Positions 618 to 23,716 of a stretch of DNA of 64,000 nt are shown in pieces. Made by a program: the position numbers and the translations under genes. The notes under the pieces were generated by a model. That model worked only from the letters and a program-made list of their open reading frames with translations, had not been told where the DNA came from and searched no databases. Source of the stretch: an uncultured Calditrichaceae bacterium (GTDB lineage: Bacteria > Calditrichota > Calditrichia > RBG-13-44-9); NCBI GenBank assembly GCA_964495805.1, contig CAZBWV010000088.1, positions 28,886 through 92,885 on the forward strand. Reading direction: 5' to 3'. The first letter of the stretch is position 1. The number at the start of each line of letters is the position of its first letter.

Positions 618-1667
618 ATGGAAAAGATTTCTTTTGTCGGATTAACTCCGGAACAGATGGCCAGAGAGTTAGAGCCATTGGGTGAACCGGCGTATCGGGC
701 CAGGCAAATTTACAAATGGGTCCATCATCAGAATGTGGATTCGTTTCTGGAGATGACCAATATTCCCAAAACGTTGCGCCAGGAGCTGGAACAGCGGTTT
801 GCTTTAAAAACGCTGAAACTGGCCCGGCGCCAGATAGCCAGCGATGGAACAGAAAAATACCTGTGGCAGCTCCCGGATGGTCGGTATGTGGAAAGCGTGC
901 TCATCCCGGAAGCCCGCCGAAATACCATCTGCATTTCCTCTCAGGTCGGTTGCGCGTTAGGATGTAAGTTCTGTGCTACCGGTGCCATGGGTTTCATCCG
1001 GAACCTAACCACGGGAGAGATTGTAGAGCAGGTACTGCAGGTGCAAAAGCGAACACCGCGTCGCATAACCAATGTGGTTTTTATGGGTATGGGCGAACCG
1101 TTTCTGAACTATTCGCGCTCCGTTCAAGCCAGCCGCATTTTAGCCGACCCGGAGGGGGTGGCCATCGCCACCCGACGAATTACTTTTTCCACCAGCGGTA
1201 TTATTCCTAAAATCTACCAGTTCACCGACGAAGGTCACCCGTACAGCCTGGCAATCAGCCTGCATGCGCCCAACCAGCAGATTCGGGAATCCATTATGCC
1301 AATGGCAAAGAAATTTCCCATGGACGAACTGTTTAAAAGTGTGTACCATTATATGCGTGCCAAAAAACGCAATCGGGTGACTTTCGAATATGTGCTACTG
1401 GCTGGCATCAATGATTCGGTGGAACATGCCCGGGAACTGGTTCGACTGCTCTCTCCCATTCGCTGCAAGCTGAACGTGATTCCCTGCAATGAGAACTATC
1501 TGGGATTTAAACCGCCTACACCGGAGCAGGTTCAGCGATTTGTGGATGTACTGATGGACGCACCGTTCACGGTTACGGTACGGAAAAATCGGGGGGAGGA
1601 AATCACTGCCGCCTGCGGACAACTGGCAGTGGAGGTGAAAGAAGAGGTGAGGTTTATTCGGCTTTAA
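618..1667 (+). CDS. rlmN: 23S rRNA (adenine2503-C2) / tRNA m2A37 methyltransferase RlmN, radical SAM
   Basis: Radical-SAM motif CALGCKFCATG. The N-terminal GEPAYRARQIYKWVHHQ region is conserved in RlmN and the length of about 350 aa fits. I moved the start to the MEKISF Met, which has an AAGGTGGA SD upstream; the ORF track starts at 576. Confidence 0.9.
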   Translation: MEKISFVGLTPEQMARELEPLGEPAYRARQIYKWVHHQNVDSFLEMTNIPKTLRQELEQRFALKTLKLARRQIASDGTEKYLWQLPDGRYVESVLIPEARRNTICISSQVGCALGCKFCATGAMGFIRNLTTGEIVEQVLQVQKRTPRRITNVVFMGMGEPFLNYSRSVQASRILADPEGVAIATRRITFSTSGIIPKIYQFTDEGHPYSLAISLHAPNQQIRESIMPMAKKFPMDELFKSVYHYMRAKKRNRVTFEYVLLAGINDSVEHARELVRLLSPIRCKLNVIPCNENYLGFKPPTPEQVQRFVDVLMDAPFTVTVRKNRGEEITAACGQLAVEVKEEVRFIRL

Positions 1668-1765
1668 AAAAGATGCTCCTTTTTTACCTTTCCGCAAAAA
1701 AATTAACCGGTTCGACCTCTATCTTAGCACCTACCAATCTGTTTCCATTCCGTCTGCACACAATT

Positions 1766-2380
1766 TCAGGAGGAACCGTACCAATTGCGTAATGTTTGCT
1801 GTAATTGCTGAAAAGCCGGATCGGTACAATGGCGAAAACGAACACTCTGGGCAATTTCTTTATAAATAGAAGATGAGCGTGGAATGCCCTTTTCTTTTAA
1901 CAAACTCTCAAATGCCTCTTTGGGACGATCTGGTTTAAATTTGCCTTCCTTCCAGAAACCTTTTTGGATTAAAAAGCTTCGAATAGAAGACACATCCGGC
2001 CATTCAACGTGTTCCGCCAAATGGGGAGAATCCACCCAAGCCCATATTTCCAGTTCCGGATCGAAAACGATCACTTCAACGCGATTCCGCCATCCGTTAC
2101 GCTCTAAATCAGTTCGAATTTTCAGGGAAATTTCATCAGCTGTATCACTTTCGTGCCCACTTCCTTCCCGATCCAGAAAAACCAGGGCGTGGTGATAATC
2201 ACTGATAAATTCCCTTAAAAACTCCACAGACTCATTATACACCCCCGGATCCCGCTTTGGATGTATAAAAATTTTATACTGGATAGCGTGGATATTCAAT
2301 GCCTGATAACGTCCCAACAAACCATCCAGAGTAAACTTAGCATTCTTATCCGCAACTAACACGATCAGATCTTTCGGCAT
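1766..2380 (-). CDS. small partner protein of the AAA_21 ATPase; TOPRIM/DUF4276/RloB-like acidic motifs, candidate effector
   Basis: 204 aa, starting 18 nt downstream of the ATPase stop on the same strand. The N-terminal beta-strand LIVLVADKNAKF sits where OLD-family TOPRIM partners carry ilvEGxtE. Later acidic strands are ALVFLDREGSGHESD and VEVIVFDPELE. There is no HNH or Cys cluster. Confidence 0.5.
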   Translation of the reverse strand: MPKDLIVLVADKNAKFTLDGLLGRYQALNIHAIQYKIFIHPKRDPGVYNESVEFLREFISDYHHALVFLDREGSGHESDTADEISLKIRTDLERNGWRNRVEVIVFDPELEIWAWVDSPHLAEHVEWPDVSSIRSFLIQKGFWKEGKFKPDRPKEAFESLLKEKGIPRSSSIYKEIAQSVRFRHCTDPAFQQLQQTLRNWYGSS

Positions 2381-2398
2381 TCCCTCTTTCCCAATTTT

Positions 2399-3649
2399 TC
2401 ATTGCAAGATGCCCGCTGCATGAAGCGTTGCCAGATCGACCCCTTTTTTCCAGTTCTTCAACCCGGGATGCTCAGGCCCCCAAACCACATCAATTGCCCC
2501 GGATTCCGTTTTAGAAAAGCACAAAATATCTTTCGGCTCAGCCAATCGCAATATCACAGGAGAATGAGTGGCCAGAATGACCTGATTGTGATACACCGAG
2601 GAAAGAGATTGCATGACTGTTTCAATAGCCAGGGGATGCAACCCGTTTTCTGGTTCCTCAATTATGTAAATTCGATCCTGTTCCGGGAGGTAAGCAATGA
2701 TGGTATGGGCTAACAATCGCAAGGTACCATCGGATAACAACCACGAAGGAATATTACTATTTCGATAGCGAACGATTAAATACAGATATCGATCTTCCGG
2801 TCGTTCCTGCACTTGAATTTCCTGAACGTCGGGTAGCGCCGTTTGAATATGTTGAACCCAGCGTTTGAACATTTTCGGATAATTTTTTTGTAAAAACTGA
2901 ATTACTTTGGGCAGATTACTTCCGTCATGCTGAAGTGTAATTGAGGCATCGGGCCGACATGGCCATCTCATAGGAATGCTATTCAATTGAAGAAATTGCA
3001 CACCTTCCATTAACACCGTTTTAACCCACAACGATATAGGAAACCGATTTTCATCTTCCGGAATTCGTGCCAATGAAGCTTTGTGAGGTCCGAAACGATA
3101 GGTAATATTCCAATTTGTTTTTTCAGATCGAAAGTAATCATTTCCCTTAGCGCTTTTAGAAATGATTTTACGCCATCCGGAAGGAGTTCGGCTTCTTTGT
3201 GCCACAATATGTGACGGCGGAACAACTTCGCGGGGAAATAAATTTAACTGCTTTTGCGGAGCCCTATCACGATTCCGTAATTCCGGTTCCTTACGGATTA
3301 GCCAGAGGTTTTCATTCTCAATAATAATCCCTTCTTTTTCACTGGTACTTAAAGCAATTTCGTAGCGAGCAAACCGATAAGTTTTATTGAGTTTTGTCGG
3401 AATCTGGAATTCCACGGCAATTTCAAAATAGTCTCGTTCCTGGTTCCAGACCAGTTGCCGAAAACTACCACATCTTTTTTCAACCGCTGCGACAGGTCCA
3501 TTATTTAGCACATCCTTCAAAAAAAGCAAAATATCCAGCAAAGAGCTTTTTCCGCTGGCATTGGGACCTATCAGGATATTAAACGGTTGCAAATTGACAT
3601 GAATATATTTGAATCCTTTATAAAAAAGAGCTTCAATTCGGTGAATCAT
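2399..3649 (-). CDS. AAA_21/AAA_15 family ABC-like ATPase (OLD / RloA / AbiLi / AriA-type)
   Basis: Walker A GPNASGKSS, signature-like LSDGTLRLL, Walker B IYIIEEPENGLHP and the hallmark ATHSP motif. Length is 416 aa. Confidence 0.75.
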   Translation of the reverse strand: MIHRIEALFYKGFKYIHVNLQPFNILIGPNASGKSSLLDILLFLKDVLNNGPVAAVEKRCGSFRQLVWNQERDYFEIAVEFQIPTKLNKTYRFARYEIALSTSEKEGIIIENENLWLIRKEPELRNRDRAPQKQLNLFPREVVPPSHIVAQRSRTPSGWRKIISKSAKGNDYFRSEKTNWNITYRFGPHKASLARIPEDENRFPISLWVKTVLMEGVQFLQLNSIPMRWPCRPDASITLQHDGSNLPKVIQFLQKNYPKMFKRWVQHIQTALPDVQEIQVQERPEDRYLYLIVRYRNSNIPSWLLSDGTLRLLAHTIIAYLPEQDRIYIIEEPENGLHPLAIETVMQSLSSVYHNQVILATHSPVILRLAEPKDILCFSKTESGAIDVVWGPEHPGLKNWKKGVDLATLHAAGILQ

Positions 3650-3673
3650 AATTTACTCTCTCAAAATGTTCCA

Positions 3674-5014
3674 TCAATGTTCCAGTCCAAACCGTTCCAT
3701 CATGGAATACAACCGGCGGCGGGTGATTCCTAACAATTCCGCTGCCCGGGTTTTGTTGCCGCCAGTACGTTCCAATGCTTGCTGAATTAAAAATTTCTCA
3801 AATTCATCCAGTCGGAAGCCATCGTCCGGGATGCGAAAAGCATACGCCTCTTCCTGTTGTCCGTGCAAAGGCGGCAGGTCTTCCACCCGAATCACCGAAT
3901 CGGCCAGAATGGAGGCGCGCTCAATGACATTCTGCAGCTCCCGCACATTTCCCGGCCAGTCGTATTCCATCAGCCGACGCAATGCCCGGGGTTCAATGCC
4001 CACCACATCGCTCTCCTTCAAAAAATGATTCACCAGCTCAGGAATATCCTCCTTTCGCTCCCGAAGCGGAGGAATAACGATGGGAAACACATTGAGCCGG
4101 TAAAACAGGTCCTGGCGGAAACTGCCTTCCCGAACCATCTCTTCCAGATTGCGATTGGTGGCGGCAATTACCCGGGCATGCACCCGAATTCGTTCGTTGC
4201 CACCCAACCGATACAGTTCTTTGTTCTGAAGCACACGCAACAATTTGGATTGGAGCGCCAGACTCATGTCACCAATCTCGTCCAGAAAAATTGTGCCGTA
4301 CCCTGCTGATTCGAACTTCCCGATTTTCCGCTGGGTAGCGCCGGTAAATGCGCCTTTCTCATAGCCGAACAGTTCACTTTCCAGCAAGTTATCCGGGAGT
4401 GCAGCACAGTTGATTGCCACAAATGGGTGGTTCCTTCGTTTGCTTTGTTGATGGATGGTCTCCGCCACCAATTCCTTACCGGTGCCACTTTCCCCCAGAA
4501 TCAGCACCGTGGCATCCTTCTCCGCCGCCTTGCGAATCAGCTGATACACCTTGCGCATCTTCTCGCTGCGCCCAACAATGCGATTGAACAAAATCGGTTG
4601 TTCCGGTGCCGATTTGAGAGACCGATTTTCTTCCAGAATTCGCTTCTGTTCAATGATCCGGCGAATGCGCAGGATGAGCTCGTCCATTTCAAACGGCTTA
4701 ATCAGATAATCAAACGCTCCCTGCTTAAGCGCCTCCACTGCGGTTTTCTGGGTGGCAAAGGCAGTCATGATAATCACTTCCACATCCGGGTAACGGGATT
4801 TGATCTCTTTCAGTAATTCCAGTCCATCCATTCCGCCCATGCGCAGATCCGTTAGCACAATCTCCGCCCGATTTTGCTCCAGCCAGGTTAATGCTTCTTC
4901 GCCGGAGAGCACATAATCGGATTCAAAATTTTCCAGCTCCAGTGCCGCTTTAACCACCCGGCAGAATTTCTCTTCGTTGTCAACTATCAGTATGGGATAC
5001 ACGTCTCTGAACAA
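3674..5014 (-). CDS. sigma-54-dependent response regulator (NtrC/AtoC family): REC + AAA+ + Fis-type HTH
   Basis: Receiver domain with ILIVDNEE and the phospho-acceptor region VLTDLRMGGMDG. Sigma-54 activator motifs GESGTGKE and KGAFTGA. C-terminal HTH (RAAELLGITRRRLYSMM). Confidence 0.9.
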   Translation of the reverse strand: MFRDVYPILIVDNEEKFCRVVKAALELENFESDYVLSGEEALTWLEQNRAEIVLTDLRMGGMDGLELLKEIKSRYPDVEVIIMTAFATQKTAVEALKQGAFDYLIKPFEMDELILRIRRIIEQKRILEENRSLKSAPEQPILFNRIVGRSEKMRKVYQLIRKAAEKDATVLILGESGTGKELVAETIHQQSKRRNHPFVAINCAALPDNLLESELFGYEKGAFTGATQRKIGKFESAGYGTIFLDEIGDMSLALQSKLLRVLQNKELYRLGGNERIRVHARVIAATNRNLEEMVREGSFRQDLFYRLNVFPIVIPPLRERKEDIPELVNHFLKESDVVGIEPRALRRLMEYDWPGNVRELQNVIERASILADSVIRVEDLPPLHGQQEEAYAFRIPDDGFRLDEFEKFLIQQALERTGGNKTRAAELLGITRRRLYSMMERFGLEH

Positions 5015-5143
5015 CCTTTGGTTAAATGTGTCGATTTCCAGAAAATTGGTTTAAAATATCGCCAGACATTTAGAGGTCTTGTTTGAAAGGAAACACCGTT
5101 TAAGCTAATTGGTGACTTGCCAGATGATTAGCCGAAACGCCGC

Positions 5144-6289
5144 TTATTTTAAAATTGCCCGCAGAAGAATCATAAAACCTTTTTCGTTGCTCTTAATCAT
5201 GTCCCGATACCGTTTGGCCTCGTTGAAATTGGGAGAAAGCTCAATGGCTTTTTCAAACTCCGACAGCGCGCGCAGATACAGGCTACGGCTTTTGATTAAG
5301 TGAAACACTCCTAAATCGTTCCAGTAATCGGGATATTTCTGAATATTCCCGCCCTGGGCGTGGAAAAAAGCTTCATATTTCTCAATCGTTTCCGGGGTAA
5401 ACTCCTCTCCTCCAAACAGAAAACGCAGGTAAAATTCGTAAATTTTGTCTTTCTCCGAAGAGAAATCCACCAGCTTCAACTGAAAATTCTCAATTTCCGG
5501 AATAATCACATCGTGGTTATTATCTTTCAGTAATTCCAGCAACTGGTTGAATTCCTTCTGCCAGTGTTTCACCTGGTAACGTTCCAGATCGCGAACCTGT
5601 TTCAAATAAATAATCACCCGCGCCGGTACAGCGACAGCACGAGGATCTTTGACTCCCTCCAGGGCAGATTTGTAAAGGGCTACCCCCATATTGAACTGGC
5701 ATTCGTAATAATTGGGATTGATGTTAATGGCTTCTTTAAACAAAGTGGTGGCGCGGTGGTATTCCCCCAAAAACAGATAAGCTAACCCGGTGTAATTAAT
5801 CAGATCGGGAAATTTTTCTCCTAAAGTCAGTGCTTTTTCAAAAACTTTCAGGGCTTTGTCGTACATGCGAGATTTCAGATAGGAGATACCCAGACCAATG
5901 TAGGCACGGACATATTCCGGGTCCTGTTCAATGGCTTTGGTAAACTGCTTGATCGCTTCCGGATAAAGATTGCGTTTTAGAAATAAAGTGCCCAGATGAT
6001 AACGAGAAACCGGATGCTTAAATTTATCCAATTTCTCTTCAATCCGGTACAGAGCTTTCAGTTCCTCGATAACCGAGTTATGAAATTTTCGGGTAATGTC
6101 ATTCAGAAATTCATAGTTGACCTGGCGGGTTTCGCTGCGAAGTTCAATGGAATATTCGTGGGAGACCAAAAACATTCCCTGCTCAAATACTTCGGAAATG
6201 ATTTTCCGGTGTTCGGTAAGGGTTCCCGTGTGGATGTGAAATTCACGGCCGTCAATTTCAAGTTTATCGTGTAACCCAAAATCCTCCAA
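5144..6289 (-). CDS. TPR-repeat protein with a divergent N-terminal domain
   Basis: Several 34-aa TPR-like units, for example YPEAIKQFTKAIEQDPEYVRAYIGLGISYLKSRMYDKALKVFEKAL. It lies between the cytochrome gene and the NtrC-type regulator on the same strand. Confidence 0.5.
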   Translation of the reverse strand: MEDFGLHDKLEIDGREFHIHTGTLTEHRKIISEVFEQGMFLVSHEYSIELRSETRQVNYEFLNDITRKFHNSVIEELKALYRIEEKLDKFKHPVSRYHLGTLFLKRNLYPEAIKQFTKAIEQDPEYVRAYIGLGISYLKSRMYDKALKVFEKALTLGEKFPDLINYTGLAYLFLGEYHRATTLFKEAININPNYYECQFNMGVALYKSALEGVKDPRAVAVPARVIIYLKQVRDLERYQVKHWQKEFNQLLELLKDNNHDVIIPEIENFQLKLVDFSSEKDKIYEFYLRFLFGGEEFTPETIEKYEAFFHAQGGNIQKYPDYWNDLGVFHLIKSRSLYLRALSEFEKAIELSPNFNEAKRYRDMIKSNEKGFMILLRAILK

Positions 6290-6370
6290 AGGAGCCTCCT
6301 GAATGCATGGCCAGATATGAAAAAAGGGCTTATTAAGATAAGCCCTTTTTTCACCGAAATCAAAATTATT

Positions 6371-6922
6371 TTAATGTTGGGGAACCGGATGGGCGATTTT
6401 GCTCCAGAAAGTTTTGAAATCGAACTTTTTGTACGTGGGCGATTTTTCGTTGTGGCAGGTTTTGCAATGATTCTCATCCGGCATCATCAAACCGTAATCT
6501 TCCGCTTTCAGTTCCCCTTTGTAAATGCCCTTCATTACTTTCATGGATTTATACTCGCTACCAGGACCGTGGCATGCTTCGCAACCCACACCTTCTTCCA
6601 TTTTGAAAGAGCTGGCAAACATGGAAGCATCTTTTCCGTAGCCGGTTACATGGCAAACCAGACATTTGTCACTCTTCTGGGGATCCTCGATTCCCATCTT
6701 TTTGGCAATTGCTTTTGCCTCATCGGTGCCCAGGGTTTCGTAGGCTTTGGCGTGGGGAGAGGCTGCCCAGATTTTAAACTGCTCACCGCTCCGCTTGGAA
6801 TTGTGGCACATCTTGCACTTTTTCACACCAATGTACTGAGGCGTTTTGGCGAATCCAGCCATGTCCAGCGCAAAGAAAATCATGACTGTTAACGCCAGGA
6901 TGATGCTCAGGGATTTCTTCAT
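6371..6922 (-). CDS. tetraheme c-type cytochrome, secreted
   Basis: Signal peptide MKKSLSIILALTVMIFFA. Four CxxCH haem-binding motifs: CKMCH, CLVCH, CEACH and CKTCH. Confidence 0.8.
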   Translation of the reverse strand: MKKSLSIILALTVMIFFALDMAGFAKTPQYIGVKKCKMCHNSKRSGEQFKIWAASPHAKAYETLGTDEAKAIAKKMGIEDPQKSDKCLVCHVTGYGKDASMFASSFKMEEGVGCEACHGPGSEYKSMKVMKGIYKGELKAEDYGLMMPDENHCKTCHNEKSPTYKKFDFKTFWSKIAHPVPQH

Positions 6923-7124
6923 GGTTTAATACCTCCTCTGACTTTGATTAAAATTTCTTTTATTTTAACCTGCCGGACAAAAAAATGCAAGTTAAATCTA
7001 AATTTAGGAACAAATGAAAAAATCTGCAAAGTGCTATATTCACATATGAATTTCCTATTCCATAAAAATAAAAAAATCCATTTCAAATGGTAAACGTCCC
7101 TTTTCTTCAGAAGTTCAATCGTCG

Positions 7125-7454
7125 CTACGATTCCCCCAACTGATGTTTCGCCTGGCTTAAATCGTTCTGGAAGCGGAGATCATGTGCAAACATTTTCCGT
7201 AATGCGTCGTGGAGTTCGGCTGGTACATCGGGATGGATTCGGTAGTACACCCATTTGTCGCGTCGGCTGGAAGTCACCCAACCCGCCAGACGAAGCTGAG
7301 ACAGATGGTGGGAGACATTACTCTGAGGTAACCGAAGAATCTCGCACAACTCATTAACATTCAACGGTCGCAAATGGAGCAAAAGATTCAAAATTCGCTG
7401 CCTGGTCTCATCCGTGAGTCCTTTAAAGAAAGTAACCAGATCAATATTATTCAT
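7125..7454 (-). CDS. ArsR/SmtB-family metalloregulatory transcriptional repressor
   Basis: Winged-HTH signature ETRQRILNLLL...LNVNELCEILRLPQSNVSHHLSQLRLAGWV. Length is 109 aa. Confidence 0.8.
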   Translation of the reverse strand: MNNIDLVTFFKGLTDETRQRILNLLLHLRPLNVNELCEILRLPQSNVSHHLSQLRLAGWVTSSRRDKWVYYRIHPDVPAELHDALRKMFAHDLRFQNDLSQAKHQLGES

Positions 7455-7592
7455 TTGAACAGGAACCCTGCTTTATTTCAAATTTTTCAACAAATTATAT
7501 CCTGGTTTCGCCCGTTGCAAGATATTTTTTGAACCCATCAATTCGGCCTTACCTGCCTCTGCTGTTTTTTTCTGTTTCATTGAATAAAACAA

Positions 7593-7621
7593 TTGACACT
7601 TTCAGGAAAAAGCGATAAATT
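7593..7621 (+). promoter_or_regulatory. sigma-70-like promoter for the YHS lipoprotein gene (TTGACA, 17 nt spacer, TAAATT)
   Basis: TTGACA at 7593-7598, a 17-nt spacer, then TAAATT at 7616-7621, about 28 nt upstream of the GGAGG SD and the ATG at 7649. Confidence 0.4.
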
Positions 7622-7648
7622 TGTTCGGCAAAAAAAATTGGAGGTCCT

Positions 7649-8005
7649 ATGAAGAAGCTCGTCATTGTTTTGCTCGTCTTAACGGTTAGCCTTGGGATGC
7701 TTGTTTCCTGCGGTGGTGAGAAAAAAGCGGAAAAGGCCCAGCAACCCGCTGCTGAGAAAAAGATGAACATCACCACCGATATGCTCACCATTGCCAAAGA
7801 CCCGGTTTGCGGCATGGATCTTACCAACACCACCATCGCGGATACCGCTATTTACGAAGGACATCTCTACGGTTTCTGCAGTGCGGAATGTAAAGCGAAA
7901 TTCAAAGCCGATCCGGAGAAATATCTGGCAAATGTAGAAGGAACGGAAGAGCATGAAATGCACGAAGGTGCCGAGGAAGAAGCCGGGGAAGAACATCATC
8001 ATTAA
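7649..8005 (+). CDS. YHS-domain metal-binding lipoprotein with a His-rich C-terminus
   Basis: Lipobox LVSCGG. YHS/TRASH motif DPVCGMDL...YEGHLYGFCSAECKAKFKADPEKY. Tail HEMHEGAEEEAGEEHHH. Divergent from the ArsR gene. Confidence 0.7.
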   Translation: MKKLVIVLLVLTVSLGMLVSCGGEKKAEKAQQPAAEKKMNITTDMLTIAKDPVCGMDLTNTTIADTAIYEGHLYGFCSAECKAKFKADPEKYLANVEGTEEHEMHEGAEEEAGEEHHH

Positions 8006-8030
8006 TTGTCTCTTCCCGGTCGAAATTAGA

Positions 8031-8067
8031 AACGGGCTATTCCATGGAGGAAATAGCCCGTTTTTTT
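8031..8067. terminator. rho-independent terminator, probably bidirectional (after the YHS gene, before the pspC end)
   Basis: Stem AACGGGCTATT ... AATAGCCCGTT followed by TTTTTTT. Confidence 0.6.
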
Positions 8068-8112
8068 ATCCGACAGATCATCCCGAATCTTTCGGGGAAA
8101 ATGCGATACAGC

Positions 8113-8778
8113 CTATGCTGCTTCATTTTCTTCCGCTTCCGGGAAAACCAGAATCAGTAGCACATATACCAGAATTCCCAGACCAATGGAAGCCAGGGAA
8201 GCCAGCACCCAGAGAAGCCGCACAATGGCCGGATCGATATTGAGATACTCGGCGATACCACCGCAGACACCGGCAATCATCCGATTCTTCCGACTGCGAC
8301 GAATTTTATTGATATCCGGTAGCGCACTGGCTGTCTGTTTCTCCTCTCCTTCCACGTTTTTGGCTTTACTGGAAGAAAAAATCAGTAGCAAACCAATGGC
8401 AATTAAAAAGATTGCCCAGATGGTGGACCAGGGAATAGCCCAGATATTTAAATATCGGAATAATCCCAATTCCCGGAATAATAGTAAAAATCCCAGCACA
8501 ATAAATAACAACGCCCAGAAGAGCGTTTTATCTTCGGTTGTTTTACGCGGTTGCTCCACCTGATCCGGGTTTTCCGGGACGATGATGATGGCAATGACAT
8601 ATAGAATCAGACCGATGCCACCAATGAATGTAAATACCAGAAAGAGCAATCGAAAAATATTAGCATCCATCTGAAAATATTCACCCAATCCACCGCAAAC
8701 ACCGAACAAATAGCGATCGGCTTTCGAACGATACAACTTTTTCGTTACCTGTTTTTCTTCTTGTTTTGTCTCTGTCAT
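8113..8778 (-). CDS. PspC-domain membrane protein with two tandem PspC domains
   Basis: Two copies of the LYRS..R.L.GVCGGL..Y motif: LYRSKADRYLFGVCGGLGEYF and IRRSRKNRMIAGVCGGIAEYL. Each copy is followed by TM helices. Confidence 0.75.
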   Translation of the reverse strand: MTETKQEEKQVTKKLYRSKADRYLFGVCGGLGEYFQMDANIFRLLFLVFTFIGGIGLILYVIAIIIVPENPDQVEQPRKTTEDKTLFWALLFIVLGFLLLFRELGLFRYLNIWAIPWSTIWAIFLIAIGLLLIFSSSKAKNVEGEEKQTASALPDINKIRRSRKNRMIAGVCGGIAEYLNIDPAIVRLLWVLASLASIGLGILVYVLLILVFPEAEENEAA

Positions 8779-8883
8779 GGCGCCCCTCCAGGGTTATTGC
8801 CTCGTTTTATGAAAATCTTATGAACAAATAAACGAAATATCTTCCAGATTGTTGCACCAGTCACATCCCGGATATCCCCGGTA

Positions 8884-9363
8884 TTAAATGGTTAGTTTGA
8901 TATCCAGAATTTTATATTTTAATATTCCGGCGGGAACCTTAATCTCCACCACGTCACCCACTTCCTTTCCCAGCAGAGCTTTCCCCACCGGCGAGGTGGT
9001 GGAAATTTTATTCTGACTAAAATCGGATTCCTCGGGAGCCACCAGCGTATAGGTAAACTGCGTCCCACGATTTAAATCCTCGATGGTCACCTGAGAAAGG
9101 ATGGTGACTTTATTTTCGGCCATGTCTTCTTTTTTCAGAATTTTTGCACGGTGAAGGGTTTGTTCCAGCTGGGTAATCTTTGCCTCCAGAAGGGTCAGAG
9201 CTTCCTTGGCAGCATGGTATTCAGCATTCTCCCGCAAATCGCCAAAATCGCGCGCTTCGGATATTTTTTGCGACAGTTCCGGACGCTTTACCTGCTTCAG
9301 TTCCTCCAATTCCTTCTTTAATTTTTCATAACCTTCCCGCGATAAATAAACGTAGTCTGCCAT
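8884..9363 (-). CDS. greA: transcription elongation factor GreA
   Basis: The N-terminal coiled coil plus the DLRENAEYHAAKE motif is canonical GreA. I trimmed the start to MADYVYL. Confidence 0.9.
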   Translation of the reverse strand: MADYVYLSREGYEKLKKELEELKQVKRPELSQKISEARDFGDLRENAEYHAAKEALTLLEAKITQLEQTLHRAKILKKEDMAENKVTILSQVTIEDLNRGTQFTYTLVAPEESDFSQNKISTTSPVGKALLGKEVGDVVEIKVPAGILKYKILDIKLTI

Positions 9364-9389
9364 ACACATCCTCTCCTTTTTATTTTAAT

Positions 9390-11621
9390 TTAATTATGCA
9401 CTGCTTTCTTACGGACAAAATTTTCCACCCGTTCCACGCTGATCATTCCACGCACCTTATTGATTGCGTTGATTACCCGGGTAAGATGAGGTAAATTTTT
9501 TACTTCCACAATAATTTTCCCCATCATCAAACGGTCCTTTGCTTTTAAATCCACATGAATAATGTTGGTATTAGCCGAAGCAATGGCATTGGTAATATCC
9601 CGCAACAGATTTTTCCGATCCTCTCCCAATAGTTGTAACTGAACCTTAAAGCGCTCTTCCGCTTCCACTGTCCAGTTGACTTCGATGGTGCGGTCTTTTT
9701 TGTTTTTATCCAGCAAACGCTGGACGTTGGGACAGCTGGTGCGATGGATGGTTACCCCTTTTCCCTTGGTCACGTAACCAATGATTTCGTCCCCGGGAAC
9801 CGGCTGGCAGCACTTACCAATGTGCACCACCATGTTATCAATTCCCTCCACCTGAATGGCCGAGTGCTTTTTGCTCCGACGAAAAATTCGGTCGATGAGG
9901 GAGTCCCGGGATTCTTCGATTTTCTCTTCTGAAATGGCCGAAAATACTTTTTCGATGGTAATTTCTCCCCGACCGACCGCCGCTTTCAGGTTCTCGAAAT
10001 CATCGAAATGGAGTTTGCGCAGCATCTCAGCAATTTTCTGATCATCCAGTTTAATATGGTACCGCTTGAAGTATTTGTTCAGGATTTCCTCACCCAATTT
10101 TACGCTGTGTTGAAACTGCACCACCCGCAGGTATTTGCGAATATGATGCCTCGCTTTGCTGGTTTTCACAAAGGTAAGCCAATCCTGGCTGGGATGCTGA
10201 TTCTGACTGGTGATAATCTCCACCTGATCACCACTCATCAATTCGGACTTCAGTGGGACAATCCGTCCGTTCACTTTGGCACCGATACAATGCATCCCCA
10301 CATTGGTATGCACGGCGAAGGCAAAATCCACCGGTGTTGCCCCCTTGGGGAGCTTAATTACATCACCCTGAGGAGTAAAAACAAATACTTCATCCTGAAA
10401 GAGATTAATCTTCAGGCTATCCAGAAAATCTTTGGCGTCCACCGTCTCGCCATCTTCAAACTGTTCCAGTAACTGCCGCACCCATACCAGTTTCTGGTCG
10501 ATGTCGTCCTTGTTCTCCACTCCCCGACCTTCTTTGTACCGCCAGTGAGCTGCAATACCCATCTCGGCTATCCGGTGCATCTCCCGGGTGCGAATTTGCA
10601 CCTCCACCATGCGACCGGAGGGATCCACCACCGTGGTGTGCAGGGATTGGTATCCGTTAAATTTGGGCATGGCGATGTAATCCTTAAACCGTTCGTACAC
10701 CGGAATGAACAGATTGTGAATAATTCCCAGCACGTAATAACATTCTTCCACACTATCCACAATAATGCGAATGGCAAACAGATCATAAATTTCTTCTAAC
10801 GGTTTATTCCGGGTGCGCATCTTCCGGTAAATGCTGTAAAGGTGTTTGGGACGTCCCTGGACTTCCGCTTTTACATTGTGAGCATCCAGCTCTTTTTTAA
10901 TGGGTTCAATGATTTTACGGATGTAAGCTTCCCGCTCTTCTTTTTTCTCCCGCAGCCGCCGTGCCAGATCGGTGTACGCTTTGTTGTCGATAAACTTGAA
11001 CGCCAGGTCTTCTAACTCGCTTTTCACCTTTGCCATCCCGAAACGATGGGCCAGCGGAGCGTACACATCCCGGGTTTCCAGCGCAATGCGGAGCCGTTTC
11101 TTAGCCGCCACATGCTGAAGCGTACGCATGTTGTGCAGACGGTCGGCAAATTTAATGATTATCACCCGGATGTCCCTGGCCATGGAGAGCAACATCTTTC
11201 GGAAGGTTTCCGCCTGCCTGAGTTCCAGACTGATGGATTTGCGCCCGCTGATTTCGCTGATTTTGGTAACCCCATTTACCAGATTGGCAATATCCTTATT
11301 AAACAACTCTTTCAGGTCATCCAGAGTAAAACCAGTATCTTCCACCACATCGTGTAGTAATCCGGCGGCAATGGTGGTGCTATCCATACGCAATTCAGCC
11401 AGAATCTTCGCCACATTAATGCAATGCTCAAAATAAGGTTCACCGGAATACCGGTACTGATCGCGGTGTGCCCACAAGCCAAACCGAAAGGCTTTGTCCA
11501 GCAATTCCCGATTGCAATTGGCATTGTACTGGCACACCGAATCCACCAATTCCTGGAACTCCGGTTGGTATCTCTCTAAAAGTTCTCGATATCTTTTATC
11601 ATTTTCATCAATGCGAAACAT
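9390..11621 (-). CDS. rel: bifunctional (p)ppGpp synthetase/hydrolase RelA/SpoT (Rel)
   Basis: HD hydrolase motif HDVVEDT, synthetase domain, then TGS and ACT regions. Length is 743 aa. Confidence 0.9.
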   Translation of the reverse strand: MFRIDENDKRYRELLERYQPEFQELVDSVCQYNANCNRELLDKAFRFGLWAHRDQYRYSGEPYFEHCINVAKILAELRMDSTTIAAGLLHDVVEDTGFTLDDLKELFNKDIANLVNGVTKISEISGRKSISLELRQAETFRKMLLSMARDIRVIIIKFADRLHNMRTLQHVAAKKRLRIALETRDVYAPLAHRFGMAKVKSELEDLAFKFIDNKAYTDLARRLREKKEEREAYIRKIIEPIKKELDAHNVKAEVQGRPKHLYSIYRKMRTRNKPLEEIYDLFAIRIIVDSVEECYYVLGIIHNLFIPVYERFKDYIAMPKFNGYQSLHTTVVDPSGRMVEVQIRTREMHRIAEMGIAAHWRYKEGRGVENKDDIDQKLVWVRQLLEQFEDGETVDAKDFLDSLKINLFQDEVFVFTPQGDVIKLPKGATPVDFAFAVHTNVGMHCIGAKVNGRIVPLKSELMSGDQVEIITSQNQHPSQDWLTFVKTSKARHHIRKYLRVVQFQHSVKLGEEILNKYFKRYHIKLDDQKIAEMLRKLHFDDFENLKAAVGRGEITIEKVFSAISEEKIEESRDSLIDRIFRRSKKHSAIQVEGIDNMVVHIGKCCQPVPGDEIIGYVTKGKGVTIHRTSCPNVQRLLDKNKKDRTIEVNWTVEAEERFKVQLQLLGEDRKNLLRDITNAIASANTNIIHVDLKAKDRLMMGKIIVEVKNLPHLTRVINAINKVRGMISVERVENFVRKKAVHN

Positions 11622-13447: not shown

Positions 13448-16400
13448 TTATACTTTTAGCACAAAATGCAAATCGTCGGTTCGGTATTTCACATTTCGAG
13501 AGGCCGAAAACGAATCGAACCACTTGAGCAGGAAGTTTCCGCCATAAGGCACCGTCTGAATACGGGCTTTTTTCAGAAGCTCCGGTTTCGGGATGTACCC
13601 ATTCCGGAACAGAGCAATTTCCTGGCGATATTCCGGAATCATCTGCTCAATTTCTGCGGTTACTTCCTCTCCGCGTTGCAATTTAAATATTCGCCCCAGA
13701 GATGCGCTCAAATCCACCAGAATTTGCCAGTTCTCCCGACCAATCCTGGAGGGAAGGGCGGCTCGAAATCGTTGTACCCGACCTTCTGCATTGGTGATGG
13801 TTCCGCTGTTTTCCGCAAACGGTGCCAGAGGGAATACAACATCCGCCTGTTTTGCCGTTTCGGTCATAAACATATCTGCAACAATCAGGAATTGGTGGTC
13901 TGATTTTTTCCATTTCATCTCAGCGGTTCCCAGCGGATCCTGTGCCCAGAAGATGGCTGCAGGAATTCGACCCAATCGCCACTCTTTCAGCAGTGCTGCT
14001 GTGGAACGCCCCGGGCGTCGGGGTAACTCTGCTTCCCACTCCTGATTAAACCGCTCGATAACCTGGGGATTGTCCACCCGCTGGTAGCCGGGTAAATATT
14101 CCGGTAACATCCCCATATCCAGCATCCCCTGGAAGTTTACCTCTTCGGGAACCGAAAGCAGAATTTCGCTTTTACCCAGCACATAAGCCAGGGTATTCAA
14201 CCAGTGCACGGTTTCCGCATCTCTGCGCGAACGATGACACACAAAGAGAGGACGTTCCGCTTTCAGCAGTTTTCGGAAGAATTTTTTCAACTCACCGGTA
14301 CTCAAGCCAAAATCGCTCGCTTTCTTTTTACGCGAGATTTCTCCAAGCTCGTTGCGCAGCATCTCCAGGGTGGAAGCGGGAATATGGCGGGCATATTTCT
14401 CCTGTTCGATTACAGAATCCACCAGAAATTTAAGGAATTCCACCCGATGTTCTTCAGAAACGGGTAAATTCTCGCCCCAGCGCGCCAGACGGGAATCCGG
14501 TTGATTCAGGATGTAGAGCGGTTGCCCGCGTCGGGCGGCTTTGTGCAGTTTAATGTAAAGCACGGGATGCGTTTCCATGGGGTCGAAATTGCCCACCAGC
14601 AGGAAGTCGCTGCTTTCAATCTTCTCGAATGTAGCATTGGACATGGAAGCGCGGAGCAACTCCTCGGGTAGTTCATTGAGATTGGCCAGTGAGCCCACAT
14701 TGTTGGTGCCCAGCACCACACGGGCAAACTTTTGTAACAGATAGTTCTCCTCATTGGTTACCGTCGGAGAACCAAAGACTGCCCATTCGGTATCTTCTTT
14801 TTGCAGATCCATAATACGTCGCGCAGTAAACAGGTACGCCTCGTCCCAGCTCACCGGTTGCAACTCACCATCTTTGCGGATATGGGGTTGAGTGAGCCGT
14901 TCATCGCTATTCACATAGCGGAACCCATACCGTCCCTTCACGCACAGATTGCCAAATTCGTTAACCACTGCTTCGCGGTCGGCAGAAGTTTTCATCCAGC
15001 GGTCGTCCAGAATTTCCGCCTGCAGGCTGCAGCCCACACTACAATACTGGCAGATGGTTTTCTCCTTTTCCAGAATCCACGGACCGGGTTTTACGGCATC
15101 CGGTTTGTCCACCAGAGCACCGGTGGGACAGGTTTCCACGCACTGTCCGCAGGAGATGCACTGGCTCTCTGCCAGCGGAACTTCCAGCGTCGGTTTGACC
15201 TTGGTGTCGAATCCACGCTTCACAAACCCGAACACACCCAATCCCATCACCTCGTCGCAGATGCGCACACAGCGGCCGCAAAGGATGCACTTATTCAATT
15301 CAATCTTAATGAAAGGATGACTGTCATCGGGTGGCAGGTCATGGAATTCTCCCTGAAATGCAGTCTGGTCCGCCTGATAATCGGTGGAATGTTTCTGTAA
15401 GTCGCACTCGTAGAATGCCTGGCATCCACACTCCAGGCAGCGCAGGGATTCCTGATACACCTGCTCTTCACTGAAGCCCAGTTCCACTTCTTCCCAGCTG
15501 TGCGCCCGCTCCCGGGCATCCCGGACGGGCATCTTCTGACGCGGAATTTTTGGAACATCAGCAAAATCTTCCGGTTGCGGCGGTCTCAGATTTTCCCGAC
15601 GACTGATGAACGGCTTCCTGGGATAGGCCAGTTCCTCTCCGGTAATGTATTTGTGAATGGCCTGGGCAGCTTTTCCTCCCTGAGCGATGGCTTCGATGGC
15701 AGTGGCTGGTCCCAGCACTACATCTCCCCCGGCAAACACACCGGGAATGTTGGTTTCCATGATTTCCGGTTTGACTTCCAGAGTACCCCAGCGGGTGGTT
15801 TTAATCTCCAGCAGCTTGCCATCCTTCCCGGCATACTCCAGGTCCGGCTTCTGCCCGATGGCGGCAATGACCCAATCCACCTCAATAACATAGTTGGAAC
15901 CCTCGATGGGAATGGGACGGCGACGTCCACTGGCATCGGGTGGTCCAAGCTCCATTTTCACACACTCAATGCCGGTTACCCGATTGTTTTCGTCGGTAAG
16001 AATTTTCACCGGTGCGGTCAGAAAGGTGAATTTGACTCCTTCTTCCCGGGCTTCTTCGATTTCAATTTTATTGGCAGGCATTTCTTTGATGGTGCGCCGG
16101 TAAACGATGTTGACCTCATCGGCTCCCAGGCGCAGCGCAGTCCGGGCGGCATCCATGGCTGTGTTTCCACCACCAATTACAGCTACTTTGCCAGAAAGCT
16201 TTTTCACCTTGCCCAGCTTTACCTCTTCCAGAAACTCGATTCCAGCCAGCACTCCTTCGGCATCTTCATTCTCCACACGCATACTGGTGCTGGCTTGCGC
16301 ACCCAATCCCAGAAAAATAGCTTCGTAACCGTCGTCAAATAGCGAATCGATGGTGAAATCCCGTCCCAGAGCTTTATTGCAATAGATTTCCACCCCCAGT

Positions 16401-17164
16401 TTTGTGATGCCTTCAATTTCTTTATCCAGGATTTTTTCCGGAAGGCGGTATTCGGGAATTCCCCAGCGCAGCATGCCACCGGGTTTGGGCTTGGCATCGA
16501 AAATGTGCACAGTGTGGCCTTCCTGACGCAGGTAATAGGCAGCAGAAAGTCCCGCCGGACCGGCGCCGATTATGGCAATCCGATGACCGGTATCCGGTTT
16601 TACCTCGGGGAAGTAACGGTCGGGACTCTCCAGATCGTAGTCCGCCAAAAAACGTTTAACGTGGTCGATGGCTTCCGCTTCATCCACCAGATTTCGCCGA
16701 CATGCCAGCTCGCAAGGTCGCGTACACACCCGACCGCATACCGTGGGGAGCGGATTGGTTTGTTTGATGAGCGCAATGGCTTCCTTGTATTTGCCCAGGG
16801 CGGCCAGCGCCAGATATCCCTGTACATCCACCCCGGCAGGACAGGTTAGTTTACACGGTCCCAGACAATCTGCATAATGGTTGCTCAGCATCAGCTCCAG
16901 CGCCATTTTGCGCGCTTCGCGAATCGCCTCGCTGTTGGTGGTAATCTTCATCCCGGGGTTTACTTTAGTGGCACAGGACGGTACAAACGTTCGGGCACCC
17001 TCCACCTGCACCACACATAGAAAACAGGAGGTAAACGGTTCCAGCTGATCATCGTGGCAAAGTGTGGGAATGTGAATTCCCTGTTCCCGACACACCTGCA
17101 AAATCGTCTGACCGCTTTCGGCAATCACCGTCTTCCCGTCTATAAATACCTGCACTTTGCTCAT
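13448..17164 (-). CDS. multidomain FeS flavoprotein: 2Fe-2S ferredoxin + GltD-like NAD(P)H oxidoreductase + NuoG-type FeS clusters + degenerate formate-dehydrogenase-like (MopB) domain
   Basis: N-terminal 2Fe-2S fold (CHDD...C..C). GltD motifs CLGPCKLTCP...NPLPTVCGRVCTRPCELAC, FAD/NAD folds IAIIGAGPAGLSAA and VAVIGGGNTAMDAA. Cluster motifs CLECGCQAFYEC, CILCGRCVRIC and CISCGQCVETCP. MopB N-terminal cluster CQYCSVGC...LCVKG. The catalytic Cys/Sec-His region is replaced by SLANLNELPEEL. Confidence 0.8.
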   Translation of the reverse strand: MSKVQVFIDGKTVIAESGQTILQVCREQGIHIPTLCHDDQLEPFTSCFLCVVQVEGARTFVPSCATKVNPGMKITTNSEAIREARKMALELMLSNHYADCLGPCKLTCPAGVDVQGYLALAALGKYKEAIALIKQTNPLPTVCGRVCTRPCELACRRNLVDEAEAIDHVKRFLADYDLESPDRYFPEVKPDTGHRIAIIGAGPAGLSAAYYLRQEGHTVHIFDAKPKPGGMLRWGIPEYRLPEKILDKEIEGITKLGVEIYCNKALGRDFTIDSLFDDGYEAIFLGLGAQASTSMRVENEDAEGVLAGIEFLEEVKLGKVKKLSGKVAVIGGGNTAMDAARTALRLGADEVNIVYRRTIKEMPANKIEIEEAREEGVKFTFLTAPVKILTDENNRVTGIECVKMELGPPDASGRRRPIPIEGSNYVIEVDWVIAAIGQKPDLEYAGKDGKLLEIKTTRWGTLEVKPEIMETNIPGVFAGGDVVLGPATAIEAIAQGGKAAQAIHKYITGEELAYPRKPFISRRENLRPPQPEDFADVPKIPRQKMPVRDARERAHSWEEVELGFSEEQVYQESLRCLECGCQAFYECDLQKHSTDYQADQTAFQGEFHDLPPDDSHPFIKIELNKCILCGRCVRICDEVMGLGVFGFVKRGFDTKVKPTLEVPLAESQCISCGQCVETCPTGALVDKPDAVKPGPWILEKEKTICQYCSVGCSLQAEILDDRWMKTSADREAVVNEFGNLCVKGRYGFRYVNSDERLTQPHIRKDGELQPVSWDEAYLFTARRIMDLQKEDTEWAVFGSPTVTNEENYLLQKFARVVLGTNNVGSLANLNELPEELLRASMSNATFEKIESSDFLLVGNFDPMETHPVLYIKLHKAARRGQPLYILNQPDSRLARWGENLPVSEEHRVEFLKFLVDSVIEQEKYARHIPASTLEMLRNELGEISRKKKASDFGLSTGELKKFFRKLLKAERPLFVCHRSRRDAETVHWLNTLAYVLGKSEILLSVPEEVNFQGMLDMGMLPEYLPGYQRVDNPQVIERFNQEWEAELPRRPGRSTAALLKEWRLGRIPAAIFWAQDPLGTAEMKWKKSDHQFLIVADMFMTETAKQADVVFPLAPFAENSGTITNAEGRVQRFRAALPSRIGRENWQILVDLSASLGRIFKLQRGEEVTAEIEQMIPEYRQEIALFRNGYIPKPELLKKARIQTVPYGGNFLLKWFDSFSASRNVKYRTDDLHFVLKV

Positions 17165-17436
17165 TTCTTGCTCCCATTCTTTAAAAAATTCCCGACATTC
17201 ATCCCCTCACCTCCGCTTTTCCGTCTATCTCTCAAAGCCATAACTTGCTCGCAATTCATTTCCATGTAAAAACCACATGTGCACAAAAATGAAACAGCTT
17301 CACCCCATCATCCCGTTCATTTTTTCCTGATCCACAATTTCCAATTCCCCAACACCTGGACTCCCCCACTTCTTTCAACCCTTTAAACCCCCATTCCCTT
17401 ACATCCCTTTCATTTTACATTTTACATTTCAACACC

Positions 17437-17520
17437 TCCCCTATCCCCCCATTTCCCCTATTCCCCTTATATCCCTTATATCCCCTATATCCCCTACATC
17501 CCCTATATCCCGTATTTCCC
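17437..17520. repeat. tandem 9-bp repeat, about 9 copies of ATCCCCTAT on the top strand (GGGGATATA-type G-tracts on the operon mRNA strand)
   Basis: Direct read: tcccctatc cccccattt cccctattc cccttatat cccttatat cccctatat cccctacat cccctatat cccgtattt. It lies in a 385-bp pyrimidine-rich non-coding spacer between the nuoF-like gene and the fusion gene. Confidence 0.7.
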
Positions 17521-17550
17521 TTCTACCCCTCACCTCCCTCCAACCCTTCC

Positions 17551-19371: not shown

Positions 19372-19383
19372 CGGAATCGTCCT

Positions 19384-19872
19384 TTATTTTTGGTATTTCT
19401 TGAGAATTCGTTTGGTTTCCCGGTCGGTTAAACGGCCGTAAGTGGTGTCGTCTATCATCATCACCGGGGCCAGACTACAACACCCCAGGCAGGCCACCGA
19501 TTCCAGGGTAAACATGCCATCCGGTGTGGTATCCCCATCGGAGATGCCCAGAAATTCCTCGCACGCTTCGGTGATGCGTTCCGCACCGCTTACATGGCAG
19601 GCCGTTCCGTGACACACTTTGATGATATGCTTACCTACCGGTTTCAGACGAAATTGAGAATAAAATGTGGCAACCCCATAAATCTGACTCACATCGGTTC
19701 GGGTGGCCTCGGCTATGCGTACAATGGCTTCTTTAGGCAGATAACCATAAATTTTCTGCGTTTCCTGCAAAAGCTGAATAATCGTACCCGGTTTTTTGGC
19801 CAATTTTTTAAGAATACGATTCAGGGGTTTCAAATCGATGGATTCGGCGGTTTGTGCCAGACTTTCTGCCAT
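19384..19872 (-). CDS. NuoE-like thioredoxin-fold 2Fe-2S protein (HndA/StnA-type)
   Basis: CHGTACHVSG ... CLGCCSLAPV motifs of the 24-kDa subunit family. It starts 12 nt upstream of the nuoF-like gene. Confidence 0.85.
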   Translation of the reverse strand: MAESLAQTAESIDLKPLNRILKKLAKKPGTIIQLLQETQKIYGYLPKEAIVRIAEATRTDVSQIYGVATFYSQFRLKPVGKHIIKVCHGTACHVSGAERITEACEEFLGISDGDTTPDGMFTLESVACLGCCSLAPVMMIDDTTYGRLTDRETKRILKKYQK

Positions 19873-22783: not shown

Positions 22784-23716
22784 TTAAACAATGATATTCA
22801 CACCGGTATGATAGTGCAAATAATCCCGGAAAACAACTGTAAAATTGTGCAGAAGTCCGTGGCGACTATTGATGATGTACACGTGGTGGTTCAAATGGAA
22901 AATCTGGTCTTTCACCCGCTCAATGGGCATGGTGTGCAGCGATTCAATACCTTTAAGCCGAATCAGCTCCTCTTCGAACATCAGCACAATTTTGTCTTTT
23001 ACTCGCAGATGGGTATCGTCCAAAAACACAGCCAGATCGGGAAGCAGAGCCCTCACCCGCTGGAAAAAGGCAGCCACCTCCGGATTGTGAATTCCCTTTG
23101 GCGGGGCAGTTTTGGTTTCCACAAAAAGTAACTTCCCCTGCCAGAGGGCAAGCACATCGTAATCTCCACCCGCATCGCCACCCTGCAGGGAAACACTACT
23201 GATTGCCGACATCCCCAATTCACGCTGCAAAAGCAACGCCACATAATGCTCCAGAACATCGCCGATGCGGGGTGTGCCCTGCTGACGGAGCCGAACCCCC
23301 TGCTCCACTTTTTCCACCACACCAATTTCCGCAAGGGTGGTTAACATTTCCCGAATGCTCCCCTCCGAAGCATAATGGCATAACTCTTCCGTACGTTTCG
23401 GAGTGGTCGGTTCCTGCAACAAATCGTGCAGCAACAGCCGAAAAGAATATTTCTGCAGAAGTCGATAGAAAACTTGCCGGTGTTGCGAATCGGTCAGTCC
23501 AAACAACCGAAACAGTTGCTCCGGGGATTCGTATTTTACCGGAGTCAACCCGCGTGGCTGTAGCGCTTCCTTCCAGAATGTTGCCAGTTCCGGTTCACTC
23601 ATTTCATCTCCCCGATTTTTTGCCCACCATCCCGAAATCATCTGCCATCTCACCATCCGATCAATATCTTTTGAATGAATGGCAATCTGCGGGGTATGAT
23701 TCACCGTAGATTTCAA
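22784..23716 (-). CDS. hypothetical protein with a winged-helix region plus a PD-(D/E)xK nuclease-like motif
   Basis: GSIREMLTTLAEIGVVEKV looks like a wHTH. GDYDVLALWQGKLLFVETK has D ... E-x-K spacing typical of restriction-endonuclease-fold proteins. Confidence 0.4.
   Translation of the reverse strand: MKSTVNHTPQIAIHSKDIDRMVRWQMISGWWAKNRGDEMSEPELATFWKEALQPRGLTPVKYESPEQLFRLFGLTDSQHRQVFYRLLQKYSFRLLLHDLLQEPTTPKRTEELCHYASEGSIREMLTTLAEIGVVEKVEQGVRLRQQGTPRIGDVLEHYVALLLQRELGMSAISSVSLQGGDAGGDYDVLALWQGKLLFVETKTAPPKGIHNPEVAAFFQRVRALLPDLAVFLDDTHLRVKDKIVLMFEEELIRLKGIESLHTMPIERVKDQIFHLNHHVYIINSRHGLLHNFTVVFRDYLHYHTGVNIIV

Follow-up and report, generated by a model that had tools for sequence, protein, structure and literature searches.

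A stand-alone MAD3-MAD4 gene pair of the HEC-01 kind beside rlmN in an uncultured Calditrichaceae bacterium

The gene pair and its protein families

We analysed a stretch of 64,000 nucleotides (nt) from an uncultured Calditrichaceae bacterium (assembly GCA_964495805.1, contig CAZBWV010000088.1, positions 28,886 to 92,885), referred to as the window below, and focused on a pair of genes at its positions 1766-3649. The pair is small, 1.9 kb in total, and encodes a 416-amino-acid (aa) ATPase and, 18 nt downstream, a 204-aa partner. Both proteins belong to catalogued families, MAD3 and MAD4, whose names come from the methylation-associated defence system (MADS). An earlier interpretation made from the letters alone (the sequence-only reading) had described an AAA_21 ATPase and a partner at this spacing. 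All motifs that it quoted were re-translated from the window at their exact coordinates, and both descriptions were confirmed as real features that go well past what chance would give. The partner turned out not to be a new effector variant.

Features of the gene pair. Positions are those of the window. Invariant MAD3 residues refer to an alignment of 46 homologues.
2399..3649, minus: MAD3-family ABC-type ATPase, 416 aa, AAA_21/AAA_15, HEC-01A-like (open reading frame list and profile matches)
3545..3568, minus: MAD3 Walker A/P-loop GPNASGKS (aa 28-35); G28, P29, N30, S32, G33, K34 and S35 invariant
2711..2737, minus: MAD3 ABC signature-like LSDGTLRLL (aa 305-313); S306, D307, G308, T309 and L310 invariant
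2633..2671, minus: MAD3 Walker B/D-loop IYIIEEPENGLHP (aa 327-339); E331, P333, E334, N335, G336, L337, H338 and P339 invariant
2558..2572, minus: MAD3 H-loop ATHSP (aa 360-364); A360, H362 and S363 invariant
2381..2398, minus: MAD3-MAD4 spacer of 18 nt, with a purine-rich Shine-Dalgarno-like tract (AAGAGGGA) just 5' of the MAD4 ATG
1766..2380, minus: MAD4-family protein, 204 aa, with a Toprim-like alpha/beta core and a C-terminal helical domain; probable divergent relative of DUF4276/HEC-01B and presumed nuclease effector
2333..2368, minus: MAD4 strand 1 with invariant D11 (LIVLVADKNAKF), at the position of the Toprim Glu according to family alignment and model
2156..2185, minus: MAD4 strand 3 with D70-R-E72-G-S-G (LVFLDREGSG), at the position of the Toprim DxD; D70, G73 and G75 invariant
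2042..2074, minus: MAD4 strand 4 with D-P-E109-L-E111-I-W (VIVFDPELEIW); P108 and W113 invariant, E109 and E111 in at least 90% of sequences
1871..1936, minus: conserved basic and polar residues of the MAD4 helical domain (K149-P-x-x-P-K154-E; R168-S169-S170), from the alignment

The larger protein was recognised by several profile libraries. Pfam gave AAA_21 (2.2e-30) and AAA_15 (2.3e-21), and the NCBIfam MAD3 model (NF047739) scored 484.3 bits against a cutoff of 420, with residues 1-415 aligned to profile positions 1-427. The best PADLOC matches were the HEC-01A models (1.9e-47), followed by mad3 (6e-29); the AbiLi model stood well below HEC-01A at 5.5e-22, and the OLD and GajA models matched weakly at about 1e-14. 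In a structure comparison the MAD3 model matched the ABC ATPases of PtuA, AriA, GajA and OLD. The protein contains no Toprim domain, its last elements being the ABC terminal strands. MAD3 resembles the ABC ATPase head of SMC/Rad50 proteins but lacks a long coiled coil as well as any nuclease domain, and it carries a variable insert at roughly aa 73-283.

A contig from a Joint Genome Institute metagenome (3300028908, Ga0256914_1043723; 2,040 bp; locus L001 below) is 99.4-99.7% identical to positions 1650-4322 of the window and has a 633-bp in-frame deletion in MAD3 between two 9-bp repeats CAGGAACGA (window 3434-3442 and 2801-2809). Its product would be a 205-aa 'mini-MAD3' that lacks residues 73-283, which is the whole insert region, and keeps Walker A, signature, Walker B and H-loop; MAD4 of this contig is unchanged at the protein level. 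The deletion is probably a real, microhomology-mediated variant, and part of the population may thereby have lost the function or have it modulated.

For the 204-aa partner, Pfam gave nothing at E<=1, and the sequence-only reading had taken it for a divergent effector and perhaps a new effector variant. However, PADLOC mad4 matched it at 3.8e-10, with a model that spans just the N-terminal 110 residues, and the NCBIfam MAD4 model (NF047734) covered it at full length with 231.6 bits against a cutoff of 160, so that it is a regular member of a curated family. All 51 aligned MAD4 relatives matched PADLOC mad4 and 17 of the 51 matched HEC-01B; the window partner itself had no match to the HEC-01B models at E<=1. 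DUF4276 (PF14103) was matched by 11 of the 51 relatives (best 9.7e-08). Since the window protein has no PF14103 match even at E<=10, MAD4 appears to be a divergent sister or sub-branch of DUF4276 and not a core member. RloB was matched by just 2 of the 51 relatives (E 0.048) and not by the window protein.

An AlphaFold model of MAD4, obtained with 51 homologues, had a predicted local distance difference test value (pLDDT) of 94.1 and a predicted template modelling score (pTM) of 0.88. In it, helices flank a parallel sheet of four strands and the C-terminal domain that follows is helical; the model matches the Toprim and helical region of BpOLD as well as AriB over about 160 of the 204 residues. 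The remaining matches in that comparison were generic Rossmann-like domains with about 110 residues aligned. A Foldseek search of the model against the PDB returned no match at E<=0.001, just generic alpha/beta folds with template modelling scores of about 0.3, and PDB sequences searched with profiles and single sequences of MAD4 relatives gave nothing meaningful.

Residues invariant in the MAD4 family alignment include D11, D44, D70, G73, G75, K149, K154, R168 and S169, and in the model D11, D44, D70, E109 and E111 all lie at strand C-termini. The partner had previously been described as laid out like the Toprim-type partners of such ATPases, with its canonical E-G...DxD residues substituted. 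The layout is borne out by the predicted fold and by the acids at the strand ends, but the partner is of neither the RloB nor the AriB (DUF4435) type. As to the substitutions, D11 and D70-x-E72 appear from alignment and model to be acid-for-acid equivalents of the Toprim Glu and DxD. Because acidic residues sit at these positions, and because MAD4 of a true MADS operon has D-C-D where the window protein has D-R-E, we read the replacements as conservative variants and not as loss of the site. The region of K149, K154 and R168-S169-S170 may have a role in substrate binding or catalysis.

Relatives, MADS and other known systems

Both proteins have hundreds to thousands of homologues, although the exact MAD3 sequence of the window had no database record, and clustering of the MAD4 family at 50% identity leaves about 1,700 representatives. 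When one genome per species was scanned, 400 relatives were found, of which the 80 closest span many phyla; the nearest was from Calditrichaceae at 59% identity. Gene context was counted in 86 non-redundant related loci, 49 of which have at least 4 kb on both sides. The order of the two genes is conserved, with MAD3 directly upstream of MAD4 on the same strand in 85 of the 86 loci and in many phyla; the commonest arrangement is a 4-nt overlap, compared to the 18-nt spacer of the window. The identities between MAD3 proteins vary together with those between the corresponding MAD4 proteins (r = 0.70, a value reached by 0 of 999 permutations). The linkage of the two genes is strict and is accompanied by co-evolution.

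The surroundings of the pair, on the other hand, vary. Among the 49 fully flanked loci, 8 lie within Hma (helicase, methylase, ATPase) systems, 1 is a MADS plasmid and the other 40 belong to neither system. An unbiased clustering of 1,120 neighbouring open reading frames (ORFs) found the Hma genes HmaA, HmaB and HmaC as the sole recurrent partner set, at 16 of the 86 loci (HmaB DUF1156 methylase, 3.9e-125; HmaC DUF499, 5e-73; HmaA helicase, 4e-78). The 97 immediate neighbours of the 56 non-Hma loci fell into 134 Pfam families, none of which recurs more than 3 times, and example contexts are acyl-CoA metabolism, sugar metabolism, an aspartyl-tRNA synthetase gene and ABC transporters. We therefore rejected the idea of a conserved third partner, as only Hma genes recur, in a minority of loci, and the other immediate neighbours are heterogeneous. 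One neighbour cluster that includes the regulator next to the window pair (F463) was disregarded, because single linkage had brought together a mixture of kinases and AAA+ proteins in it. Part of the MAD3-MAD4 family is associated with two methylation-based defence systems, MADS and Hma. Hma-embedded and stand-alone pairs are interspersed by similarity, and the cassette therefore appears to change context often; the window pair is 45-59% identical to Hma-embedded relatives and up to 63% identical to stand-alone pairs.

The slot of the cassette within Hma also differs, being HmaA-[MAD3-MAD4]-HmaB-HmaC in some loci and HmaB-[MAD3-MAD4]-HmaC in others (L015, L017, L018, L020, L034, L038, L064, L067, L072, L073, L080, L092 and others), which suggests repeated independent insertions. 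Two further loci, L014 (about 2397-10612) and L083 (about 8600-10600), have two MAD3-like ATPase genes upstream of one MAD4, with the two ATPase genes of L014 separated by an ORF of 2,088 aa. Both loci may represent variants of the cassette architecture.

The MADS operon of Pseudomonas aeruginosa comprises eight genes in roughly 22 kb, of which mad2 encodes an N6-methylase (Maestri et al., bioRxiv 10.1101/2023.03.30.534895; Cell Host Microbe 2024). Each of mad2-4 and mad6-8 is required for phage defence in that host, mad5 can be deleted only jointly with mad2 or mad3, and deletion of mad3 relieves the lethality of mad5 loss (10.1101/2023.03.30.534895). This last result is consistent with MAD3, and by linkage MAD4, acting in a toxic restriction arm. 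In the authors' MacSyFinder model MAD6, MAD7 and MAD8 are mandatory and MAD3 and MAD4 are accessory (10.1101/2023.03.30.534895), and their supplement describes Mad3 as an AAA_21-type ATPase and P. aeruginosa Mad4 as DUF4276-like (HHpred 99.78%).

As a reference MADS operon we used a Piscinibacter plasmid (L012), in which MAD1-8 all score above the NCBIfam cutoffs. The window pair shares with MADS its MAD3 and MAD4 membership above the equivalog cutoffs, the gene order and the tight linkage. In contrast, the window lacks MAD1 (helix-turn-helix), MAD2 (N6-methylase), MAD5 (S subunit), MAD6 (kinase), MAD7 (DptG-like) and MAD8: with one reference per protein, taken from L012, none of the six had a tblastn match in the window or in 80 genome loci. 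Weak MAD6 kinase matches in L052 and L014 reflect a generic kinase domain only and were not counted as evidence of MADS. None of the window proteins falls into a cluster with HmaB or with other methylases of the related loci, in a window that is partly annotated for other methylase types. As MAD2 and MAD5-8 are absent, the window locus is not a MADS system. The L012 proteins have the same motifs at 32% (MAD3) and 39% (MAD4) identity to those of the window, and the L012 pair stands apart, its identity to the 56 other pairs compared never exceeding 41%. The NCBIfam MAD4 score is blind to these differences in context, with 231.6 bits in the window (1766-3649), 233.2 in the true MADS (L012, 13508-15489) and 234.3 in a Hma-embedded locus (L017, 8745-10630). 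Because the MAD3 and MAD4 models score all contexts alike, the 'methylation-associated' label also reaches proteins with no methylase in their vicinity (such as P0034/P0185 in L005).

The closest described counterpart is HEC-01 (Hma-embedded candidate 01), an ABC ATPase and a TOPRIM-like protein inside Hma, whose HEC-01B metal site is reported to be conserved with Burkholderia OLD (Payne et al., bioRxiv 10.1101/2024.01.29.577857; PADLOC-DB v2). Like HEC-01, the window pair combines an ABC ATPase, which matches HEC-01A, with a separate protein of predicted Toprim-like fold. Unlike HEC-01, it is not embedded in Hma, and the window has no HmaA, HmaB or HmaC. The locus is of the HEC-01 kind, but in a different setting.

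The sequence-only reading had called the pair OLD-, AbiL- or PARIS-like and had set it apart from Septu. The resemblance is seen in the fold of MAD3, which matches AriA, GajA and OLD, but the pair does not qualify as a member of PARIS, OLD/GajA or AbiL. AriB of PARIS is a DUF4435 Toprim of about 300 aa, whereas MAD4 appears to belong to the DUF4276 lineage and is about 100 residues shorter; the two are similar at the fold level only, with 13% identity. For PARIS, the Ocr trigger, the stoichiometry and the tRNA target are established. In the OLD family (P2 Old, Burkholderia and Thermus OLD, Gabija GajA, the retron Eco8 effector) ATPase and Toprim are fused in proteins of about 520-740 aa, while the window has two genes. 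Set against the acidic site of OLD and GajA, window MAD4 has D11 after strand 1, D70-R-E72 after strand 3 and E109/E111 after strand 4. AbiL (AbiLi-AbiLii/RloB) has an RloB-type partner and DUF4276 is common to part of the MAD4 family, and the window partner matches neither. The distinction from Septu (PtuA-PtuB), which has an HNH partner, proved right: the window partner has no HNH domain or Cys cluster, its sole conserved Cys being C185, and the PtuA equivalog model gave the ATPase 47 bits against a cutoff of 500. At the level of the parts list the locus resembles PARIS or OLD, and it is a member of neither.

Flanks and composition of the locus

The pair is a low-GC, compositionally foreign islet between rlmN and a sigma-54 regulator. 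Its GC content is 42.5%, compared to 48.9 +/- 2.7% in equally sized windows (0.3rd percentile), and GC at third codon positions is 0.39-0.40 in the pair versus 0.46-0.62 in neighbouring genes. The neighbours and the upstream spacer are as follows.

576/618-1667, plus: rlmN (Pfam RlmN_N and Radical_SAM), convergent to the pair
3650..3673, minus: spacer of 24 nt from the regulator stop codon to the MAD3 ATG, with a GAGAGAG Shine-Dalgarno-like tract
3674-5014, minus: NtrC-type sigma-54 response regulator (Pfam)
5144-6289, minus: TPR protein of 381 aa, upstream neighbour of the sigma-54 regulator

These flanks agree with the earlier placement of the pair between rlmN, 98 nt away, and an orphan regulator; the regulator has no adjacent histidine kinase. 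It is, however, more than a mere neighbour. Regulator and MAD3 share a strand, with 24 nt from the regulator stop codon to the MAD3 start, so that co-transcription of the pair with the regulator is possible. The 24-nt spacer has no room for a separate MAD3 promoter, promoter and terminator scans at the locus stayed at chance level, and the acquired pair may be read through from the regulator transcript. Searches for tRNA genes, Rfam families and direct or inverted repeats bounding the pair found none, so that there is no recognisable mobile-element border. We also sought a pairless rlmN/regulator junction among rlmN relatives from metagenomes; the nearest was just 66% identical and lay in a different context.

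The genes sampled in the window are all housekeeping genes: rlmN, the regulator, TPR, cytochrome c, ArsR, PspC, RelA/SpoT, FKBP, Nuo-like subunits, the Bat cluster, GldG-like genes and LpxB. A few further observations concern this surrounding sequence. An acidic, lysine-rich ORF of 123 aa (109-480, minus), divergent from rlmN, has no NCBIfam or PADLOC match, and an ORF of 310 aa (22784-23716, minus) near the DUF58/vWA-BatD cluster has no Pfam match. A bidirectional terminator is probably formed by an inverted repeat at 6318-6353 (TGAAAAAAGGGCTTAT/ATAAGCCCTTTTTTCA), whose 16-nt arms match perfectly around a 4-nt loop; it lies between the TPR gene and a gene for a small multihaem cytochrome c (6371-6922). 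At 13448-19872 (minus) a 1,238-aa fusion of a GltD-like NAD(P)H oxidoreductase and a NuoG/formate-dehydrogenase-like molybdopterin domain adjoins a NuoF-like protein of 606 aa and a NuoE-like 2Fe-2S thioredoxin-like ferredoxin, and together these genes resemble a soluble oxidoreductase module that is linked to NAD(P)H and possibly bifurcating. Genes for DUF4340 and ABC_transp_aux/DUF7088 (GldG-like) lie at 38450-41457, about 35 kb from the pair; the same families are found directly downstream of the pair in an unrelated locus (L008, 11924-16525), which is probably a coincidence.

Candidate functions of the pair

We consider it likely that the locus is a horizontally acquired, stand-alone MAD3-MAD4 cassette of two genes, of the HEC-01 kind, which would work as a split OLD-type or PARIS-type machine with MAD4 as its nuclease. 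MAD3 would serve as sensor and regulator through ATP binding or hydrolysis together with its variable insert. MAD4, presumably in complex with MAD3, would be a metal-dependent Toprim nuclease that damages invader or host nucleic acid once activated. As the window showed none of the MADS or Hma partner genes, whether for a methylase, a kinase, a helicase or another protein, self and non-self would have to be discriminated via a trigger, as in PARIS or Gabija, or via an unlinked system elsewhere in the genome. We also put forward, as a possible and more tentative generalisation, that MAD3-MAD4 is a portable ATP-regulated Toprim nuclease cassette which forms the restriction or effector arm of at least two unrelated methylation-based immune systems, MADS and Hma, and whose commoner, stand-alone form could be an autonomous, PARIS-like anti-phage or anti-plasmid system with a trigger other than DNA methylation status.

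Several points weigh against this interpretation. A defence role of stand-alone pairs is putative, and the one HEC-01 representative that was assayed, in isolation, protected against none of the phages used (10.1101/2024.01.29.577857). The restriction mechanism of MADS is still given as unknown in a 2026 review. E72 of the putative metal site is not invariant, being A, S or D in some relatives, and no integrase, tRNA gene or flanking repeats mark a mobile element around the pair. The analysis covers 64 kb of the genome with ORFs partly annotated, and partner systems acting in trans are possible.

Some of these points would also fit a plug-in effector that is inert alone and needs a methylation-based system (Hma, MADS, type I restriction-modification or similar) encoded at another place in the genome, or a spare part that could yet recombine into such a system. 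The failure of the isolated HEC-01 representative and the limited part of the genome that is visible are in line with such a dependence, as is the recurrence of the cassette inside Hma systems, and genetic evidence of function is confined to the eight-gene MADS operon, which depends on further genes as well. However, stand-alone pairs are the majority among the closest relatives (the 40 of 49 fully flanked loci mentioned above, in many phyla), and Hma-embedded pairs do not separate from them by similarity. The stand-alone majority, together with intact ORFs and invariant motifs, argues for selection on autonomous function, and we regard the plug-in explanation as plausible but less likely. We think it very improbable that the pair is a decaying, functionless remnant of a former MADS or Hma island. 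The MAD3 deletion in the nearly identical L001 contig does suggest that loss-of-function variants may circulate, but in the window neither ORF is truncated, every ATPase motif and every family-invariant MAD4 residue is retained, no fragments of MAD1, MAD2, MAD5-8 or HmaA, HmaB and HmaC flank the pair, and the flanks are tight on both sides.

A housekeeping or regulon role would make the pair either a repair mediator like RecF/RecR, which likewise combine an ABC ATPase and a Toprim protein, or an output of the adjacent sigma-54 regulator. The distribution of the family is sporadic, foreign and defence-embedded, and we give a role of this sort very little credence. Still less can be said for a type IV toxin-antitoxin pair, which we hold to be barely conceivable. 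It is prompted only by how Pfam describes AAA_21 ('putative AbiEii toxin'), but this label is generic for the ATPase family, the fold of MAD3 is an ABC ATPase head, and neither protein has an AbiEi-type antitoxin or a nucleotidyltransferase toxin domain according to Pfam, PADLOC and NCBIfam.

As both proteins belong to catalogued families and stand-alone copies are implicitly known already, the locus is no new kind of system. It does bear on annotation, where genomes are labelled with a methylation-associated defence system in places where no methylase is present. If the cassette is indeed autonomous, the name 'methylation-associated' would be misleading for most members of the family. Being mostly stand-alone among its closest relatives and mobile between contexts, the cassette is a candidate autonomous ABC-ATPase/Toprim immune module and a compact candidate for the restriction effector of MADS, and the 1.9-kb pair offers a tractable experimental construct.

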